Positions 41,645 through 64,000 of a DNA stretch of 64,000 bases are shown one piece after another. The notes under the pieces are model-generated. The model saw only the letters and a program-made list of their open reading frames with translations, was not told the origin of the DNA and did no database searches. The position numbers and the translations under genes were made by a program. The stretch is from Candidatus Woesearchaeota archaeon. Its GTDB lineage: Archaea > Nanobdellota > Nanobdellia > Woesearchaeales > UBA10216. The DNA is taken from positions 48,804 to 112,803 of the forward strand of contig JACPTF010000010.1 of the NCBI GenBank assembly GCA_016192915.1, in the 5' to 3' direction. How positions within the stretch are numbered: position 1 is the first letter of the stretch; each line of letters opens with the position of its first letter.

Positions 41645-41760
41645 AGCCCCTGGCGAGAGTTGAACTCGCGGCCTACTGCTATTTCTTCCTTTTTGGTCAA
41701 GCTTTTTGCTTGCAAAAAGGTTGTACGAAGCAGTCGCTCTGGCCACTGAGCTACAGGGGC
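41645..41760 (-). tRNA. tRNA-Thr(CGT) with a ~43-nt intron at the canonical position
   Basis: Reverse complement reads GCCCCTG-TA-GCTC..GAGC-G-ACTGC-TTCGTA-[intron with hairpin ctttttgc/gcaaaaag]-A-GCAGT-AGGCC-GCGAG-TTCAACT-CTCGC-CAGGGGC-T, followed by TTTT. Confidence 0.7.
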
Positions 41761-41952: not shown

Positions 41953-42602
41953 AAGCACATGTTGCTGATGGCAATTTTATAAATCTTTGCCGCTGCTGTA
42001 AAAAGAGGGGGGCGCCGCAGCCGGGAATCTCATCCGGCTCTGCAGCCAGATTTTGAACCCGGATGAAGTTCGGGAAAACTTCACCAGTTTTTCAAACAGG
42101 CGCAATAACCTGATTCTGCCACCGCGGCAACTCCCATTTTACACTTACCATCAATTCTTGATATGCTTATCGCCTGGATTTACGGAAATTTTACGTCAAA
42201 GTGGTAATTCTTTCCGTCTATTCCGTGAATTTTTTGCATTTTCTGCAATTTGACGGAAATTTTTCCTTTGCCCCGCAATTTTTCTGGCTGTGTTGGGTGT
42301 CCAATAGGGTGCTTTCAAGTTAAGTGGCAAAGCCGACTTTGGTGCTGCGCACTTCCTTTCCCTCCCCTACGCTTAGCGTGGGGAGAGGAAAGCAACCCAA
42401 ATGCAGTTTGGGCAAAGTCGGCAACAAAAGACACCTAACTTGGCATTATCGTCCAATAGAAAAGATTAAATAGTAGAAGAAGGATTCAATAGTCAAGAAG
42501 TTCGGGAAAGCTGAAACATTAATCTGGTTCTGTCTTTTTTCTTTTTTTCGGGTACAGCTTCGGCGAAACTAATAAATACCCGGTTATCTGAGAGCAAAGG
42601 CA

Positions 42603-49363: not shown

Positions 49364-49493
49364 GCGTCGGTGGTCTAACGGCATGACCTCAGCCTTCCAC
49401 ACAACCTTCTTTGGTGCGGCAAAGAAGCTTGACCAAGAAATCCACAGGTTGTAAAGAAAGCTGATGGTCCGGGTTCAATTCCCGGCCGACGCA
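49364..49493 (+). tRNA. tRNA-Gly(TCC) with a ~57-nt intron at or near the canonical position
   Basis: GCGTCGG-TG-GTC..GAC-C-TCAGC-CTTCCA-[intron with ACAACCT/AGGTTGT and cttctttg/caaagaag helices]-GCTGA-TGGT-CCGGG-TTCAATT-CCCGG-CCGACGC-A. Confidence 0.7.
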
Positions 49494-50172: not shown

Positions 50173-52404
50173 TCACACCACTGGCTGTGCTATCCCGCCA
50201 ATGATGCTGGCCGCGATTATGTTGAACATCATAGTGATGGCGAACGCGACCAGGCCGTAGATGACCGTTCCCCGTATGAGGTTGGTGCCGAGCATATACC
50301 GCTCAGAGACCTTGTCAGAGCCGTTCTCAATCCCGTTTATCAGCAGGGTCAGGATTATCGTTACCTCAATTATGTAAAGCCCTATTATTACCTGGAAGAA
50401 ATAAGTCGGGACGCCGTTCCCGAAAAGATTAAGCAGCCCGGAAGGAATGCCAGCCTCCCCTCCGCCTCCGAATTCCGTAATTGCTGAAAGCTGCTCGCTC
50501 AGCCTGCTTATTATGGTTACTATCATGGACGTAATTCCAACGACTATGCCGGCTATTGCCGGAGCCAAAACACCAACCTGCTGCTTCATGTCGCTTATTA
50601 TGTCAGACATGAGGTCTTTCAGCCTTTCATCAACCCTGTGGATGTCCTTGATGTATTGGGAAACGTTTATCATCGCTGAAGAAGCCGCCATTGGGCCTTT
50701 CTTTGCGCTTTCGACAAGGACTTTCATAGAGCTTTCTATAAGCGGCGAGGGAAACTGCAGCAGAGTCCCTCTTTTTGAGTCGAATATTGCTGCCTCAACA
50801 GACATGCCCTGCCTCACAACCTTCTGATTGACAAGCTGGAAAAACTCTCCCGACCTTGTTCCGGCCATCATCTCGCTAACCTTGCCGATTGCCCGCTCCA
50901 GAGGCAGCCCGTCCCCAATCCTGTTGCCGAGCTGAAACAGGGCAGATGAGAATTCCTCTTCAAGGGCATTGGCATCCTCCCTCAGTTTGAGGACGTTCCT
51001 TGACCTTATCCTATGATACAGGCCGATTCCGACTCCGATGCCTACTGGTATGAAAAAGCTGAGCACTGTCGCCCCAAGCCCGTAAGGGCCGGTAAGGGAT
51101 GCTCCTGTCAGCTTGTACTCCAGAAACTTGAAGTTAAGGGTCTGGTCGAATGTGCGCTCATTAAGCAAGACATCCCGGGGCAGTATTGCGCCAAGCAGCA
51201 GCGGAACAATACCGATAAGGACCGCGAAAAACATCACGCCAAGCGTCAGCCAGATTGGGTTAATTGCTATAACCTTTTTCCCAAAACGGAGCAGGATGTT
51301 CCTGAGCTGCCGCACATCAGAATTAGCCTCAGAAATGTCCTGCTCTCCATAGCCGGTTGGCCTCTTTGAAAGCACCATCCTGCTCATGTAGAAAAGCACC
51401 AAAGGCAGGATTACGTTGTAAAGAAGGGCTATGTTAAGCGCTATCTTCATTGGCGGGGTATCGGACGTAAGGAAGCTCGCTGCCATTGGGAGTATGACCA
51501 GACCGAGCACAGGAAGAACAATACCGAGCATGTACAGCATGGTGACTGGGTTTTTGAGGTCGTGGCTGTAACGGAGCATCTTGTCATAGGTTTCCTGAAG
51601 CATCACGTCAAGGCTCTTGTCAATCATGTTCAGGCGCCTGTCATCAGACGGCTCATAAAGCGAGCCCTCTATGAGATGGAAGGCCTCAATGAACTCAAGG
51701 TTCCACTTCCTCCACGTTTCGAGATAGTTATCGACAGACTCCTTAATAGTATCAAGCTTGCCTGTCTCAACATCCCAAAGTATTTTTTTCAGGTCCAATG
51801 CCAAAGGAGGGGTTAGCCGGTCTGCTGCAAAGCGGACTGCGAGCTCAAGGTTTGAAGTATGGCGCATAAATGTGGCAACGTAAAAGATGCACTGCACCAT
51901 CTGGTTAGAGGCAGCAAGCCGGAAATTGTTCGCGAGAATCTCAGGCGCCTTTATCAGGGCAGCGTAAGTGAACAGCCCCATGCCAAGCGCGTAAGCCATA
52001 ACAATCATCGACTTTACAACGGCAAACCCGAAAAGCAGCCCAAGCAGGGTTACAACTCCGGCAGCGATGACTGCAAGGCTCATCGCCCCTGCCGGAGAGG
52101 ACTCAAGGTGGCAGAGCGAGATGTACTGCTGAATCTCGTCAGTCTGCTTCTGGTTCGGCTTGAGCCTTAAAATGCGCTCAGCCTTGCTGCAAAGCCGTTC
52201 GTAAACGCTTAAGTGGCGGGGAAGGTTCTCCCTCTTGAAATCAATATAATTGGATGAAAGTAGCGGTTCCAGCAGTTTTGAATTTGCCGTTTCAGCCCTG
52301 GCAGGGGGCTTGCCCTTCCTGCCGAAACCGGAAATTGCCTCCTCAAGCCTGCCAGAATACTTTTTCGCCAGCGGCTCATCCGCCGATGTTGTTGGAGTTT
52401 TCAT
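50173..52404 (-). CDS. Polytopic membrane protein, FlaJ/TadC-like (type II/IV secretion platform, T2SF-like)
   Basis: 743 aa. Cytoplasmic N-domain, then two blocks of TM helices separated by a soluble domain. Immediately downstream of the secretion ATPase. Confidence 0.5.
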   Translation of the reverse strand: MKTPTTSADEPLAKKYSGRLEEAISGFGRKGKPPARAETANSKLLEPLLSSNYIDFKRENLPRHLSVYERLCSKAERILRLKPNQKQTDEIQQYISLCHLESSPAGAMSLAVIAAGVVTLLGLLFGFAVVKSMIVMAYALGMGLFTYAALIKAPEILANNFRLAASNQMVQCIFYVATFMRHTSNLELAVRFAADRLTPPLALDLKKILWDVETGKLDTIKESVDNYLETWRKWNLEFIEAFHLIEGSLYEPSDDRRLNMIDKSLDVMLQETYDKMLRYSHDLKNPVTMLYMLGIVLPVLGLVILPMAASFLTSDTPPMKIALNIALLYNVILPLVLFYMSRMVLSKRPTGYGEQDISEANSDVRQLRNILLRFGKKVIAINPIWLTLGVMFFAVLIGIVPLLLGAILPRDVLLNERTFDQTLNFKFLEYKLTGASLTGPYGLGATVLSFFIPVGIGVGIGLYHRIRSRNVLKLREDANALEEEFSSALFQLGNRIGDGLPLERAIGKVSEMMAGTRSGEFFQLVNQKVVRQGMSVEAAIFDSKRGTLLQFPSPLIESSMKVLVESAKKGPMAASSAMINVSQYIKDIHRVDERLKDLMSDIISDMKQQVGVLAPAIAGIVVGITSMIVTIISRLSEQLSAITEFGGGGEAGIPSGLLNLFGNGVPTYFFQVIIGLYIIEVTIILTLLINGIENGSDKVSERYMLGTNLIRGTVIYGLVAFAITMMFNIIAASIIGGIAQPVV

Positions 52405-52410
52405 GAAAAA

Positions 52411-55400
52411 TTAAACGACCTCAACCTCTTTTCTCCTGATGGCCTTTTTCAGCCACTCGCTCCACTCGAAGAGGATGCGCTTGTTGTCGTATGAGCCCAG
52501 CTCATCCTTTACCTCCTCAGCCAACTTGTGGAACTCGTCATTCGCCTGCACGACAAAAGGCGCTTCAAGCAGCTCATTCTGGCCTGTCTTATCAGCAGCA
52601 TCCACCACGGCCTCCTTAATCTGGGCACGGAGCAGGACGTTGTCCCAGACAGCGTCCCAGCTTCCGGCCCAGTCCTTCACATTCGCCGCAATGGACTTCA
52701 GGACATCACTTTCGCCATTAAGCAAGTCAATGGTTGGCTCGAGCTGGTCTGACTTTGAATCGTACTTCATCAGGTCCTTGAAGCCCTTCTCCAGCAGCGG
52801 GTCATTCTCCCAGTATTTTCCCACCTCAGTAATCTGGGTTAACCTGCGCCAGCGGTGAAGCCCGTCAGGGGTCCTAATCGGATTAGCAACAACAATGACA
52901 TCGGTTGCCTTGAATGATGTCCTGGGCACCCTTAAGTCGTTAACGACCCTGTCGAAAACACCGTAAGGGCTGTCGCCGTGAATGGTGCCTGCAACGACAT
53001 TGGCAAGAGCTCCCACTCTCATGGCCTCGTAAAGTGCAGCAGCCTCAACCGACCTCACCTCACCGATGATTAGGCAGCTGTCGCCCATTCTAAGAGTTGA
53101 CCTTATGCCCTCGTCAGCGGAAACTTCTGTAGTGCCCTTTGTCAGTGCCGAAGCAACTTTCATTGACTGGATGTTGTAGTTAAGCTGCTTCAGTGCTGCA
53201 ACAGGTAATTCTAGAGTGTTGTGAGCTACAATATTATCGCAGACAAAGCTCTCGCATTCAGGTACAGATAGGTCGTATACCCAGCCATCATGTTCTTGCA
53301 TTGAAATTTCCCTGACTTCATCCCAAAATATGTCAGATTGTGCCAGAATTGAAAGGTTCTCAGACAACTCACATGGCAATTGATTTGTTTGCAGTATGCT
53401 AACAAGCCTGGTTTGCCCTATGTCGTTATCTCTAATCACATAGTCATGAAAGTTAAATTTTGGAATCATATCCCATAAATCCTCTTTTGTTCCAAGTGAT
53501 AGCGGGATTATGTCTGTTGTATCGTGCGTGCTTGTTTTGCTGCACAATAAGTCAACTTTCTGGTTTTTATAATGCTGCAAGAAGCCAATATTATCCCTGA
53601 AATTCTTCCATGATTTCAATGAACTTATGCCCGCATTGTAGGTGCCATCACTTCTTTTCTTGCCAATCCTGAAAACTATGTCATATGCGGATAAAAGAAA
53701 TTGTATGTCTTTTAGCAAGGCGGCTGAGGCCATCGGAATTACAATCTCCTTATCCGCAGCGCAGCCATCACCAGTGAAAATACCGTTAAGCACAAAGGCA
53801 ATCTGCTCCCTGGATAATTGATAAATCCATGCGGGCAGACGCTTGGTGTAGGAATTACCTTTCAGCTCAAATAGCTCTGCCATGCAAGCTTTGAGGGTTT
53901 TAGAATTAAGCTGGAGTGAAAATCCGTCAGAATGCATCTTTACCGGTATTCCGAATTTCTTCCCTACACTATGCACCACTGCTCTATCCTCTTCGTCAAC
54001 AGCAGAGATGATTACTGACATTTGGTCGTAGCAACCATCCGCTATCCATAACCCCACAAATGTAAGAAACTCCTTATCAAGCGACATTTTGGCAGGCAAA
54101 GAAAAAGTCGAACGCCTGCCCACCTTAAAAAAGATTTTTCCATCACCAATCCGATAACCTGCAGAGATTAGTTTCCCCACAATCTTGCCTGGAAGCATCC
54201 CTTTCCTTATCCAATATTGAATAACCTGTTTTCCATAGCCTTGTTTCTCTCCAAGCTTTTTGATATCTGCCCTATGCTGCTGTGCAAAATTCATGACTGC
54301 CTCTCCAAAGATATAGCTTTCTTCAAGCCCTAAAATCTTGGGAAGTAAATCGATTTCTGGCAGCTCCTTGTTGGCAAGTTCAATATGTCTGGGCACAGAA
54401 ATGTGGCTGCCTGGTTGAAGCTCCTTTACCTTGGCTTCTTCTATTTGGCCAGTTTCACCTACAGTAAACAGAGAATGGTCGCCTGTAACCCTAATTGTCC
54501 TGCCTGTTCTTGTCTTCACAGTGAATAGCGGCTTGTTTACCTTATGTCTTATGAAATTACTGACTCTGCTAAGAACAATCTTGCCTTGCTTATCCATGGC
54601 GTATATCTCAATTTTTTCTGGATTTCCGGCCACTTCGTGGTCTGAAAGGTTGTAATAGCTTCCGTGCTTGGTTATATTGCTATCCACAAGTTCTCCTATG
54701 GTTGTTCGCTCATAGGTGCCATTTCGCCTAATAATGAGTTCACTATCGCCAGCAACGCTATCCTCTAGTGAGATCATACGATATTTCCTCATTATCTCAA
54801 CCATGACGGAGCCGAGCACTGATGTTTTTCCGGCAGACCTTGTGCCGGCAACGAGCATTGTCCTGGAGCCGTCAATGAGGAAGCTGAGAAGCCCTGCTGA
54901 AAGGGGAGTCATCATCCTCTGCTTTATGAAGAGGGGAAAGGTCCACGGCTTGTCCCTGTGCCGACGGAAAGCATAAGCAAGGCCGTTTGGGTTCAGGGGC
55001 TCACCGACGACGGCTACCCTTGCCCTGGCTCCCGGAACAAGCAGCTCTGTGTCCAGTATTGGATTGGCCTCGTCCAAAGGCCTTCCGGACATCAGCCTCA
55101 GCTTGGTAGCCCAGGAATCAGCATCGCTCGAAGTGGGAATAATGTTTGTCATGCAATCATCATAATCCTGGTGCACGATAAAGAGCGGCTGCCTTCCCAT
55201 GGGGCTGTTGGCTGTTATGTCCTGGATTTTATCGTCCTTGAGCAAGACCTCAACAAGGCCAAATCCGATAGTATACCTGACAAGCACTTCAGCGAGCTCC
55301 TCAACCTCCTTAGTGCGGAGCTTGAGCTGCTTCTGGTCAGCGAGCTCCTCAATTAAATCGCTGCCTACGTTAAAGAACACCTGCCTGACCCTTTCAGGGT

Positions 55401-56235
55401 CAATGAACTCGCTTCTTGTTGGCTTATGCTCTGAGATCACCCTTTTGGCCAAATCGAGAAGCTCATACTTGTCTTCGGTAAGCTTGAATTCCGGAGGCAC
55501 AACATGGTAAAGGTACTGGACCGTAGAGGGAAGCTTGAACAAGGTAATGTCAGCCCCCTCAACAGTGTAGCTGTCAATTTCCTCGCCATCCTGTGGGAAG
55601 GCAGCCATGAGCCTGGTGAACATGAAATCAGGCTTTGCAAGAGGGTTAAAGACAAAATGATAAATGCCCCTGTTGCCTTCCTTGTAATCCTGCAGGTGAG
55701 GCTTTGCCTTCAGCATCAGCTCGGTTTTTTCAAGCGCGTTAAGAAGCGACTCAACAAGCTGAAGGTATCTGTCAGCTCCGGCAGCCTGCTGGGCAGCCCT
55801 TTCACTGGCAACCTTTTCCTCACGGTGCATCCTGCGAAGCTCAACATAAGCTGCAACAGGGTCATTCCTTAGCTTGTTGTAAACTATGTTCCTTATCTCA
55901 TAACTGCGCCTCTCCCCACTTGGGCCGGTAAAAACGCCGCCGAGCGAGGAAAGCGTAAAAAGAACCTGCTGCTTGATTATCTGATTGCGAAGCTTGCCTA
56001 TCTCTGCAAGCATCCTGACCTGCCCATAATCGTACTCGTAATCCCTTTTTTGCGCAAAGACAACCCGGGTAATGCTTGGGTTTTCAACCAGCTTGTCAAT
56101 AACGGCAGACATGCAAACAGTGCTGTCCTCGATTGAAGGGAAAAAGGGGAAGGCCTCTGCATCTATTCTTAAGACTAGGTCCTCGCCCTCCTTGTACGTC
56201 TCGTAACTAAAATAGTCCCCTCTTTTTTCAGGCAT
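52411..56235 (-). CDS. FlaI/VirB11/PilB-family secretion ATPase interrupted by a 514-aa intein
   Basis: Walker A AGTRSAGKTS. The host motif ISLED|TLELPV is split by an insert that begins with S, ends with HN, and carries LAGLIDADG blocks (LTFVGLWIADGCYD, AFVLNGIFTGDGCA). The C-terminal extein has the ATPase His/Asp boxes. Confidence 0.85.
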   Translation of the reverse strand: MPEKRGDYFSYETYKEGEDLVLRIDAEAFPFFPSIEDSTVCMSAVIDKLVENPSITRVVFAQKRDYEYDYGQVRMLAEIGKLRNQIIKQQVLFTLSSLGGVFTGPSGERRSYEIRNIVYNKLRNDPVAAYVELRRMHREEKVASERAAQQAAGADRYLQLVESLLNALEKTELMLKAKPHLQDYKEGNRGIYHFVFNPLAKPDFMFTRLMAAFPQDGEEIDSYTVEGADITLFKLPSTVQYLYHVVPPEFKLTEDKYELLDLAKRVISEHKPTRSEFIDPERVRQVFFNVGSDLIEELADQKQLKLRTKEVEELAEVLVRYTIGFGLVEVLLKDDKIQDITANSPMGRQPLFIVHQDYDDCMTNIIPTSSDADSWATKLRLMSGRPLDEANPILDTELLVPGARARVAVVGEPLNPNGLAYAFRRHRDKPWTFPLFIKQRMMTPLSAGLLSFLIDGSRTMLVAGTRSAGKTSVLGSVMVEIMRKYRMISLEDSVAGDSELIIRRNGTYERTTIGELVDSNITKHGSYYNLSDHEVAGNPEKIEIYAMDKQGKIVLSRVSNFIRHKVNKPLFTVKTRTGRTIRVTGDHSLFTVGETGQIEEAKVKELQPGSHISVPRHIELANKELPEIDLLPKILGLEESYIFGEAVMNFAQQHRADIKKLGEKQGYGKQVIQYWIRKGMLPGKIVGKLISAGYRIGDGKIFFKVGRRSTFSLPAKMSLDKEFLTFVGLWIADGCYDQMSVIISAVDEEDRAVVHSVGKKFGIPVKMHSDGFSLQLNSKTLKACMAELFELKGNSYTKRLPAWIYQLSREQIAFVLNGIFTGDGCAADKEIVIPMASAALLKDIQFLLSAYDIVFRIGKKRSDGTYNAGISSLKSWKNFRDNIGFLQHYKNQKVDLLCSKTSTHDTTDIIPLSLGTKEDLWDMIPKFNFHDYVIRDNDIGQTRLVSILQTNQLPCELSENLSILAQSDIFWDEVREISMQEHDGWVYDLSVPECESFVCDNIVAHNTLELPVAALKQLNYNIQSMKVASALTKGTTEVSADEGIRSTLRMGDSCLIIGEVRSVEAAALYEAMRVGALANVVAGTIHGDSPYGVFDRVVNDLRVPRTSFKATDVIVVANPIRTPDGLHRWRRLTQITEVGKYWENDPLLEKGFKDLMKYDSKSDQLEPTIDLLNGESDVLKSIAANVKDWAGSWDAVWDNVLLRAQIKEAVVDAADKTGQNELLEAPFVVQANDEFHKLAEEVKDELGSYDNKRILFEWSEWLKKAIRRKEVEVV
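53218..54759 (-). mobile_element. Intein (with LAGLIDADG homing-endonuclease domain) within the FlaI-like ATPase gene
   Basis: N-terminal Ser, C-terminal VAHN followed by +1 Thr. Two dodecapeptide motifs. Removing it restores the contiguous P-loop ATPase motif ...RMISLEDTLELPV... Confidence 0.75.
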
Positions 56236-56360
56236 TTGTTAACCTCGTTTCCCACGTCGCTTTCAGGCGACGGGGCCCAATCGTGCCCTGCACGATTTGG
56301 GTTTGATTGACCTTTCCGCATCGCCTATTGCGATGGGACCAGTCGAGCGTATCTCGACTT
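56236..56360 (-). promoter_or_regulatory. Cluster of four consecutive stem-loops in the divergent intergenic region upstream of the ATPase gene
   Basis: CGTCGC-tttcag-GCGACG; CCCAATCGTGC-cct-GCACGATTTGGG; CCGCATCGC-ctatt-GCGATGGG; CCAGTCGAG-cgtat-CTCGACTTGG. Confidence 0.35.
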
Positions 56361-56430
56361 GGTTTGCGAAAAAGGTCATAGCAAACCTCTTTACAAAGCT
56401 ATTTATATAACTGCCGCTATTTATAGTTTT

Positions 56431-56874
56431 ATGGATACGGGCATGTTCCCAAGCGGTAAGAAGAACACGCAAGACGCATCTGTTTCTGCATCACTAAGCC
56501 AGGCCGTTGCTGAAGCCGAGCGGCGCCTGAGAACAATTGAGGAACGATTTTCCAACCTTGAGCGAAGAAGCCAGGTAACAGAGGAAAACATGCTCACCAG
56601 TGACAGAAAGATAAAATCGGAGATAAGGCTGACAAGCAGCGATGTTTCAGACGTAAAAGCCCAGATTGCTGAGCTCACAGAAAAGATAAAAGAGGTAATA
56701 AGGGAGCTTCAGGGCTTCGCGAGGGCTGAAGATGTTGACGTCATAAGGAAGTACCTCAACCTTATTGAACCATTGGGTTTTGTCACGCAAAATGAAGTGG
56801 ACCGCATTGTCAGGCATGCAGTTGAAGAGGCATTGGGCCAGCAGCTCAGCGAGCAGGGCACAGGAAAAGAGTAA
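56431..56874 (+). CDS. Coiled-coil protein (start trimmed to MDTGMF)
   Basis: Heptad-rich sequence (RLRTIEERFSNLERRSQ..., AQIAELTEKIKEVIREL). Confidence 0.4.
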   Translation: MDTGMFPSGKKNTQDASVSASLSQAVAEAERRLRTIEERFSNLERRSQVTEENMLTSDRKIKSEIRLTSSDVSDVKAQIAELTEKIKEVIRELQGFARAEDVDVIRKYLNLIEPLGFVTQNEVDRIVRHAVEEALGQQLSEQGTGKE

Positions 56875-56947
56875 TAGCCCTTCGCCATTCAAAAGCTTTA
56901 AAAACAATTATCGCAAATTAGCACTATTAAACGAAAAAGTGGTGGCA

Positions 56948-57847
56948 ATGGGGCTTTTTAATTTTGGCAAGAAAAAGGAGGAGCCGATTCAGGGGCCGAG
57001 AGTGCCTGTTGATGATGTGGCAAGGATGCGCAGGCAGGGCTTGTCCAATAACCAGATAGTCCAGGCGCTTCAGCGCAACGGCTTCCAGAGCCACCAGATA
57101 TTTGACGCGTTCAACCAGGCAGACTTGAGAGTGCCTTCGCCTCTTCAAGGGATGCAGCAGGGCATGCAGCCAGGAATGCAGGGAATGCCGCCAAGAGCAG
57201 CGCAGAGACAGCAATTCATGCAGCCTGGCCCACAAGGCCCACAAGGAATGGCCGGAACAGACCATGGCCAGGAAAGCCCGGCAGATTTGGGAATGCCGCC
57301 AGTGCCTCCGGGACTGGACGAAATGGGCAATGAGGCGTCAATTACAGGGCCGCAGACCGCTGACGAATTCTCAGGGTTGCCCGGGCTTGGCGAGGACTTT
57401 GGGCAGGGCGGGCAGCAGCCCGGTCAGGAACCAGTGCAATTCCCGCAACAGGGCGAAAGCTTCCCATCACAACCGGCGAGCTACGGCAGCTATGACGCCT
57501 CAGCAAAGATTGAGGAGATAAGCGAGGCAATTATAGAGGAAAAATGGCAGGACCTTATGAAGGACTTTAATAAGATCGTGGAATGGAAAAGCTCAATGGA
57601 GCAGAGAATGGCAGCGATTGAGCAGCGGCTTTCTGACCTTAAAGCAGGCTTTGACAACCTGCAGCGAAGCGTGGTTGACAAGGTAAGCGACTACGACAAG
57701 AGCGTGAAAGACGTCAACACAGAGATGAAGGCATTAGAGCAGGTTTTCCAGAAAATCATACCAACCATGACGGAAAACGTAAACGAGCTCTCAAGAATAA
57801 CCAAAGTTATGAAGTCTCCGCAGCAGCAAAAGAAAAAACAAGCTTAA
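56948..57847 (+). CDS. Gln/Pro/Gly-rich protein with a small N-terminal helical domain and a C-terminal coiled coil
   Basis: N-terminus MGLFNFGKKKEEP..DDVARMRRQGLSNNQIVQALQRNGF. Repeats GMQQGMQPGMQGMPP. C-terminal heptads. Confidence 0.4.
   Translation: MGLFNFGKKKEEPIQGPRVPVDDVARMRRQGLSNNQIVQALQRNGFQSHQIFDAFNQADLRVPSPLQGMQQGMQPGMQGMPPRAAQRQQFMQPGPQGPQGMAGTDHGQESPADLGMPPVPPGLDEMGNEASITGPQTADEFSGLPGLGEDFGQGGQQPGQEPVQFPQQGESFPSQPASYGSYDASAKIEEISEAIIEEKWQDLMKDFNKIVEWKSSMEQRMAAIEQRLSDLKAGFDNLQRSVVDKVSDYDKSVKDVNTEMKALEQVFQKIIPTMTENVNELSRITKVMKSPQQQKKKQA

Positions 57848-60486: not shown

Positions 60487-64000
<3,514 letters not shown>

Follow-up and report, generated by a model that had tools for sequence, protein, structure and literature searches.

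The described systems closest to the element reported here are large archaeal class-1 inteins such as PI-PkoII (the Pol-2 intein of Thermococcus kodakarensis, PDB entry 2cw7) and PI-PfuI (1dq3), in which a Hint splicing domain is combined with a two-motif LAGLIDADG endonuclease and accessory helical domains. In PI-PkoII the first residue of the intein is a serine (Ser1) and the first residue after it a threonine (Thr+1). Insertion into an invariant catalytic motif is a classic intein strategy, since imprecise loss from such a site is lethal and the target stays conserved. Here we analyse a stretch of 64,000 nucleotides (the window) from a Candidatus Woesearchaeota archaeon (contig JACPTF010000010.1, positions 48,804 to 112,803), in which the gene for a secretion ATPase is interrupted by an insert that likewise has this layout. 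The insert is almost certainly a class-1 intein of the canonical kind, with a LAGLIDADG homing endonuclease embedded in it, and is placed in the Asp box (IED/TxEL, between Asp492 and Thr; the slash marks the insertion point here and below) of a 760-residue Woesearchaeota ATPase of type-IV-filament or secretion type.

Inteins in hosts of this category have been catalogued before. Table 3 of Novikova et al. 2016 records 21 inteins in archaeal VirB11 (COG0630) and 5 in CpaF (COG4962), from Crenarchaeota, Euryarchaeota and "other Archaea", and the replication hosts MCM, PolC and PolB account for 116, 80 and 67, respectively (PMC4760082). The main text of that paper gives no insertion sites for the VirB11 and CpaF inteins. 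The original prediction for this locus, made from the sequence alone, had held that inteins in FlaI/VirB11 ATPases are far less common than those in replication proteins; the catalogued counts bear this out as a matter of numbers, while the host itself is a known one and cannot be called unusual.

The intein and its host ATPase

The precursor gene is a single unbroken open reading frame (ORF) on the reverse strand of the window (52411..56235, with the stop codon at 52411-52413) that encodes 1274 amino acids and matches the Pfam families T2SSE, Intein_splicing and LAGLIDADG_3. All positions given in this section lie on that strand. The N-extein comprises residues 1-492 (54760..56235) and the C-extein residues 1007-1274 (52414..53217), the latter opening with Thr+1 in TLELPV (53200-53217). 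Between them lies the intein, precursor residues 493-1006 (53218..54759), which is 514 residues long and runs from Ser1 to Asn514. The translated junctions read ...RKYRMISLED/SVAGDSELII... on the N-terminal side (...EIMRKYRMISLED/SVAGDSELIIRR...) and ...CDNIVAHN/TLELPVAALK... on the C-terminal side (...ECESFVCDNIVAHN/TLELPVAALKQL...). The original prediction had described a 514-residue LAGLIDADG intein that starts with Ser directly after ISLED, finishes with VAHN and is followed by Thr; its coordinates prove exact to the base, its junctions agree with the translation, and the identification is confirmed by domain matches, invariant key residues and the modelled fold, as set out below.

The splicing domain is recognised by Pfam Intein_splicing (PF14890; E 9.5e-27; score 94 bits, cut-off 35.8) and by NCBIfam intein_Nterm (TIGR01445; E 2.4e-13), and the endonuclease by Pfam LAGLIDADG_3 (PF14528; E 1.5e-10). 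With such E-values chance can be ruled out as the origin of the intein call. There are also long NCBIfam matches to the intein portions of the RpoA'', Tes, DnaB, PolII, RFC and IF-2 models.

To describe conservation we refer to the Asp-box insertion point as site a, and to an alignment of 13 inteins from this site, with identities of 33-73% to the window intein. Twelve residues are invariant in it: S1, T92, D94, H95, D241, G242, K306, D331, G332, D496, H513 and N514. Block A (SVAGDSELIIRRN, 54721..54759, the region matched by intein_Nterm) holds the Ser1 nucleophile, and its V2, D5 and S6 are at least 90% conserved. Block B (GRTIRVTGDHSLF, 54466..54504) carries the TxxH motif as T92-G-D-H95. 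Within the Hint C-lobe (53218..53337) lie block F (WVYDLSVPECESF, 53245-53283), with Asp496, and block G (VCDNIVAHN, 53218-53244), with His513-Asn514. Thr+1 is present in every site-a allele. The endonuclease core, intein residues 226-405 (53545..54084), contains LAGLIDADG motif 1 (FLTFVGLWIADGCYD, residues 231-245, 54025-54069), which includes GLWIAD241G, and motif 2 (IAFVLNGIFTGDGCAAD, residues 320-336, 53752-53802), which includes GIFTGD331G; the conserved lysine K306 lies between them in SYTKRLP (53833-53853). This residue set is complete, and the element is therefore assigned as a class-1 intein with a two-motif LAGLIDADG endonuclease. Annotation of the splicing blocks had been proposed as a check, with a lineage-specific domain devoid of such blocks as the outcome that would speak against an intein; blocks A, B, F and G were all found instead, with their key residues invariant among the relatives.

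Assignment to the other intein classes was considered and rejected. A class-2 (KlbA-type) intein would have Ala1, no N-terminal nucleophile and a Cys at +1 that attacks the N-terminal splice junction directly; Ser1 and Thr+1 are found in their place. A class-3 intein would likewise lack the N-terminal nucleophile and would have a WCT triad (Trp in block B, Cys at position 4 of block F, Thr in block G); it is ruled out by the presence of Ser1 and by block F, which reads VYDLS and has Asp496 in place of Cys at the conserved position.

A model built with AlphaFold2 (AF2) on the site-a alignment has a mean predicted local distance difference test score (pLDDT) of 92.6 and a predicted template modelling score (pTM) of 0.91. 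It consists of a Hint N-lobe (residues 1-125), a mostly helical insert (residues 126-225, 54085..54384), the endonuclease core (residues 226-405), a helical region (residues 406-474) and the Hint C-lobe (residues 475-514). The core is a duplicated alpha-beta-beta-alpha-beta-beta-alpha unit, in which DSSP assigns helices at 229-241, 256-269 and 287-296, each consecutive pair of helices being separated by two strands, and the repeat starts from the helix at 317-331. In a Foldseek search against the PDB the top match was PI-PkoII (2cw7), over the full length and including the helical insert (E 7e-31; template modelling (TM) scores 0.74/0.71), followed by the TliVMA, PI-PfuI and PhoVMA inteins. 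The Hint lobes superpose on the mini-inteins of TFIIB, RadA, CDC21 and KlbA with a root-mean-square deviation (rmsd) of 1.7-2.7 A, and the core matches the endonucleases I-DmoI and I-Tsp061I. The helical insert probably serves as an accessory domain, acting in DNA binding or as a linker. In-frame insertion, Ser1, TxxH, blocks F and G, Thr at +1 and a Hint fold are thus all present, as sequence and fold require of class 1.

Comparison with the nearest intein, that of locus L014 (73% identical), gave a ratio of nonsynonymous to synonymous substitution rates (dN/dS) of about 0.10 overall and of 0.20 for the helical insert, above that of the endonuclease core; these ratios are approximate because dS is near saturation. 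The nonsynonymous rate itself was lowest in the endonuclease core (0.114), intermediate in the Hint lobes (0.142) and highest in the accessory regions (0.236). Sequence, predicted fold and selection taken together indicate that the splicing domain is functional and that the endonuclease is constrained and probably functional as well. The original prediction spoke of an intact homing endonuclease, which holds in the sense of sequence and fold, both LAGLIDADG motifs and the corresponding fold being present.

Once the insert is removed, an extein of 760 residues is left that has thousands of relatives in a search of about 5.8 billion proteins, the nearest of which are from Candidatus Woesearchaeota and carry the annotation 'type II/IV secretion system ATPase subunit'. 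When aligned to solved structures it matches GspE (2oap, E 5e-29) and also CpaF and FlaI (4ii7/4ihq). Site a falls in the Asp box (VVSIED/TREI of GspE), after Walker A and before Walker B and the His box. The motifs that define the T2SSE/FlaI/VirB11 group occur in order: the N-extein has Walker A (GTRSAGKTS, 54820-54846) and the initial half of the Asp box (RMISLED, 54760-54780), which is rebuilt as ISLED/TLEL across the junction, and there follow Walker B IIGEVRSVEA (CLIIGEVRSVEAAAL, 53032-53076) and the His box GTIHGDS (VVAGTIHGDS, 52969-52998) in the C-extein. The motif that the original prediction saw reconstituted across the junction, IED/T.EL, aligns with VVSIEDTREI of Archaeoglobus fulgidus GspE, and the same position reads [IVL]ED/T in 110 of the 116 homologue clusters that lack an intein at site a. 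The host domain is Pfam PF00437 (T2SSE), and partial matches to the NCBIfam models FlaI, TadA and VirB11 break around residue 493. Since the score against the FlaI equivalog of NCBIfam (101.7 bits) is far under its cut-off of 550, the host belongs to the T2SSE/FlaI/VirB11 superfamily but is not an orthologue of the archaellum FlaI.

The best match to the extein, P0001, is also 760 residues long and carries no intein; it is 96% identical across 100% of its length, so that alignment with an intein-free homologue, which had been suggested as a check, shows the same length and no insertion or deletion. P0001 is encoded on contig JACPIH010000031 of GCA_016188155.1 (loci L001/L002). At the DNA level this empty sister allele and the window extein, 2283 nucleotides each, align without gaps at 92.9% identity. 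A scan of GTDB revealed nothing closer to the window gene than this allele, and a look-up of the exact precursor protein yielded no recorded gene identical to it. Across site a the empty allele (L002) reads ...TCGATTGAGGAC/ACTTTAGAGCTTCCT..., also given as ...AAGTACCGCATTCTTTCGATTGAGGAC/ACTTTAGAGCTTCCTGTTGCGGCA... The insertion is precise. The extein has a dN/dS of 0.07, a value that shows strong purifying selection on the ATPase gene in the intein-bearing lineages.

Two further observations concern the ATPase itself. It has an N-terminal extension of about 290 residues (starting at the 5' end of the gene, 55356..56235) that is kept across a Woesearchaeota family of 740-770 residues, and residues 1 to about 290 have no Pfam or NCBIfam match. 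Its Walker A is atypical, GTRSAGKTS aligning with GETASGKT in GspE.

The splicing route sketched here follows the established class-1 pathway. The 1274-residue precursor would be translated first and is presumably ATPase-dead, because its Asp box is split. An N-O acyl shift at Ser1, helped by Thr92 and His95 of block B, would be followed by attack of the Thr+1 hydroxyl on the resulting ester to give a branched ester. Cyclisation of Asn514, helped by His513 and by Asp496 of block F, would then release the intein, and an O-N shift would restore the native bond ...ISLED-TLELPV..., yielding the 760-residue ATPase and a free 514-residue protein. The latter would be expected to cut the uninterrupted IED/TLEL coding sequence of empty alleles through Asp241 and Asp331 with a divalent metal, and repair from an occupied allele would copy the intein into the cut allele (homing).

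Distribution, mobility and rival explanations

The distribution of the intein is sporadic. Among the 120 best homologue clusters, 110 are intein-free, 4 have an intein at site a and 6 have one at a second insertion point, which we call site b; of 21 GTDB species-representative loci, 4 are occupied at site a and 1 at site b. The loci used for the compositional comparison below are L014, L019, L022 and L024 for site a and L009, L023 and L025 for site b. The site-b intein, of about 510 residues, is found directly after Walker B (GEVRS/S[VIL][RK]GDQ...LLHN/TEA). Where site b is empty the +1 residue is variable (T, V, K, L, S or M), and it is Thr wherever the site-b intein is present. In the window gene site b is empty, reading GEVRS/VEA between Ser and Val (53050..53055, reverse strand). 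No protein in the 120 clusters carries inteins at both sites, but mutual exclusivity of the two was rejected as a conclusion, as only about 0.2 doubles are expected from 4 and 6 occurrences.

The closest extein, at 96% identity, has no intein, whereas the closest intein is only 73% identical. The list of matches to the intein query should not be read as a census, since it missed this 73%-identical intein of P0016, which was found through the extein query. The same intein family, at 34-36% identity, also occupies the Asp box of a canonical FlaI-like paralogue (P0143/P0149), where it reads IED/SVTGDS...VHN/TRELNLP, and is found in ATPases of DPANN lineages labelled Nanoarchaeota and Aenigmarchaeota.

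The composition of the intein differs from that of its host gene. Its G+C content (GC) is 0.42 and its GC at third codon positions (GC3) 0.43, compared with 0.51 and 0.61 for the extein, a fall that also shows in the composition profile. The same offset was seen in all 7 of the other intein-bearing genes (sites a and b) and in the second intein of the window; each intein falls short of its own extein by 4-13 points in GC and by up to 26 points in GC3, over a range of host GC of 0.42-0.55. The offset is a systematic trait of these inteins and not peculiar to the window.

When the window extein is compared with the empty sister allele, the two densest 90-nucleotide windows of mismatches fall on the two insertion sites, with 16 mismatches at site a and 19 at site b against a mean of 6.4 (Poisson tails 1e-3 and 4e-5, respectively, before correction for about 25 windows). 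Identity drops to about 75% within 30-45 nucleotides on either side of each site, which is the between-species level in this group. Such flank divergence would be expected from co-conversion during homing, or if the intein had been lost through recombination with an empty allele of divergent sequence, and the spike at the homing sites is suggestive. The element is likely to be mobile at present, judging from these sequence patterns. More tentatively, the intein 'homing cycle' may be in active progress at this ATPase gene in groundwater Woesearchaeota, where two unrelated endonuclease-bearing inteins target sites 55 codons apart. The tracts of about 75% identity at both sites could then be co-conversion scars, reflecting a recent invasion at site a and gain and loss at site b; if this is true, they are direct sequence evidence of ongoing gene flow by homologous recombination between DPANN archaeal populations.

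The strongest competitor to a homing element is an intein in which splicing is kept and the endonuclease no longer drives homing, so that inheritance is vertical with occasional loss by precise deletion or recombination, and the endonuclease fold is retained for folding or stability. We consider this unlikely, yet a number of observations favour it and weigh against homing. Intein and extein identities are roughly parallel (73% vs 81%, and 42-57% vs 57-69%), and therefore vertical descent with repeated loss fits these values as well as recent homing does. In distant hosts no nearly identical intein turned up, the nearest being 73% identical, and no donor-like flank occurs among the sampled alleles. 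In two further a/b allele pairs the divergence peak was weak in one (P 0.03, 0.06) and missing from the other. The compositional offset could also come from relaxed codon selection and not from foreign origin. On the other side, the catalytic Asp pair, the Lys and the motif Gly residues are invariant across inteins that are only 33-73% identical, and dN is lowest in the endonuclease core. The presence of the same intein family at the same site in the paralogue P0143/P0149 requires transfer between genes, and the sister allele, 96% identical, lacks the intein and has the divergence spike at the site.

Two other explanations concern splicing. The first, in which a domain specific to the lineage, or an intein that has decayed, stays in place in an ATPase that either works with it or has become a pseudogene, is hardly credible. 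Nothing positive speaks for it, the one point in its direction being that the C-terminal intein model TIGR01443 (intein_Cterm) matches weakly and marginally under its cut-off (14.1 bits vs 15.6), which also counts against the intein assignment; the HN/T junction and block F are clear despite this score. A retained insert would split the Asp box within the nucleotide-binding site, and it is at odds with the invariance of all splicing residues, an ORF intact over 1274 codons, the strong purifying selection on the extein (dN/dS 0.07) and the high confidence with which the Hint fold is predicted. Somewhat less improbable, though still a poor prospect, is that the intein acts in addition as a post-translational switch, with conditional splicing (in response to temperature, redox state or substrate) gating assembly of the pilus or secretion ATPase; this would be compatible with a homing intein. 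An unspliced precursor with the intein in its catalytic site must be inactive, a regulatory meaning has been proposed for the clustering of inteins in ATPase active-site motifs (PMC4760082), and regulatory splicing has been reported for an archaeal RadA intein (PMC11409957). However, no intein occurs in 110 of the 120 nearest clusters, the 96% sister among them, so that no conserved regulatory need is apparent, and the Ser1/Thr+1 chemistry leaves no redox-sensitive Cys at the junctions. A class-1 homing intein in the Asp box accordingly remains the explanation that we prefer.

Other features of the window

Downstream of the ATPase gene by 6 nucleotides lies an ORF for a polytopic membrane protein of 743 residues (50173..52404, reverse strand), which is syntenic in the relative L001 and has no Pfam match at E<=0.01. 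By its position this is presumably the platform protein, similar to FlaJ/TadC, in a type-IV-filament system specific to Woesearchaeota. Two ORFs on the forward strand diverge from the ATPase gene. The nearer (56359..56874) encodes a coiled-coil-like protein of 171 residues and the other (56765..57847) a protein of 360 residues with a low-complexity centre rich in Q, G, P and M and a coiled-coil C-terminus; for both, Pfam matches are sub-threshold only. GC climbs locally to 0.62 (57200-57500) where the 360-residue protein has its low-complexity centre.

The second intein of the window, of 492 residues (61366..62841, forward strand), lies in an ORF for a CDC48/AAA+ ATPase (60487..63999) that runs off the window end. 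Its junctions are ...MSKFYGQ/... and ...FGGVFAHN/SEQNLRKKF, it matches Pfam Intein_splicing (E 9e-24) and LAGLIDADG_3 (E 2e-10), and it is GC-poorer than its own extein. This intein is closer to the site-b than to the site-a intein of the secretion ATPase (188 vs 138 bits).

Rfam reports tRNA matches at 41645..41760 (reverse strand) and 49364..49493 (forward strand). These span 116 and 130 nucleotides with the whole 71-position model covered, and so the two tRNAs probably contain introns. ARAGORN calls neither of them, and calls a 93-nucleotide tRNA-Phe at 42036..42128 (reverse strand) that Rfam does not report.

Comparison with known inteins

The window intein belongs to a well-known class, shares no more than 73% identity with its nearest relative, and does not overturn current understanding. 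For annotation, the gene is best described as an intein-containing T2SSE-family ATPase with a mature product of 760 residues, and neither as a fusion of 1274 residues nor as a 'LAGLIDADG endonuclease'. Several relatives that carry an intein are listed by NCBI under the name 'Flp pilus assembly complex ATPase component TadA' and with Pfam domains of inteins, and because such annotations exist the Asp-box allele is already in public data. An intein that relies on Ser and Thr and is free of Cys might, if robust, be of minor biotechnological use. A mildly new angle might lie in the alternative pair of homing sites with its local hyper-divergence, which perhaps reflects a continuing turnover of inteins and exchange of DNA among DPANN archaea.

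PI-PkoII is the best match among PDB sequences (phmmer, E 2.5e-20), at about 19% identity in the structural alignment. While PI-PkoII and PI-PfuI reside in a DNA polymerase or a ribonucleotide reductase and have demonstrated endonuclease activity, the window intein resides in a secretion ATPase and its activity is predicted. Among NCBIfam models the best match is that of the RpoA'' intein (PRK14898; 167.6 bits, intein residues 1-514 against model positions 76-543), which makes RpoA'', a different host protein, the nearest curated intein-containing family; the score is far under the 783-bit cut-off because the intein part alone matches.

Closer in terms of host is the Mja KlbA intein (MJ0781, 2jmz/2jnq), the textbook case of an intein in a VirB11/TadA-like archaeal ATPase, whose host belongs to the same T2SSE/VirB11-type superfamily and which shares the Hint fold (weak sequence match, E 3.9e-4; Foldseek E 6e-6). 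That intein, however, is a mini-intein of 168 residues without an endonuclease and with Ala1 (class 2) and Cys+1, in contrast to the 514 residues and Ser1/Thr+1 of the window intein. The KlbA N-extein ends ...TGHDG/ before Ala1 in the precursor chain of 2jmz, which corresponds to NTGHDG between Walker B and the His box in the CpaF alignment. Since NTGHDG lies past Walker B, KlbA would represent a third site, which follows the one in the Asp box by about 70 extein residues; this placement comes from the 2jmz extein residues with chimeric queries, and it is the only KlbA site that was mapped. The window intein lies in the Asp box, ahead of Walker B, and is ruled out as an occupant of the KlbA-a insertion point. 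The VirB11 and CpaF inteins of Novikova et al. share with it the host category and the theme of insertion into conserved ATPase motifs (PMC4760082), and the 760-residue Woesearchaeota paralogue was probably outside their 2015 data set.

The site-b intein (for example in P0011, P0069 and L009) is found in the same host protein and resembles the site-a intein in its Ser1...HN/Thr+1 junctions, length of about 510 residues, LAGLIDADG domain and sporadic occurrence. It differs in lying 55 extein residues further downstream (GEVRS/TEA), in being only 25% identical to the site-a intein and in being missing from the window gene. With this alternative intein at Walker B, the window intein offers a small natural system for following intein gain and loss, and hence DNA exchange, in uncultured DPANN archaea, and it adds to the inteins of archaeal secretion and pilus ATPases an endonuclease-bearing Asp-box member with Ser1 and Thr+1, at a site different from that of Mja KlbA.

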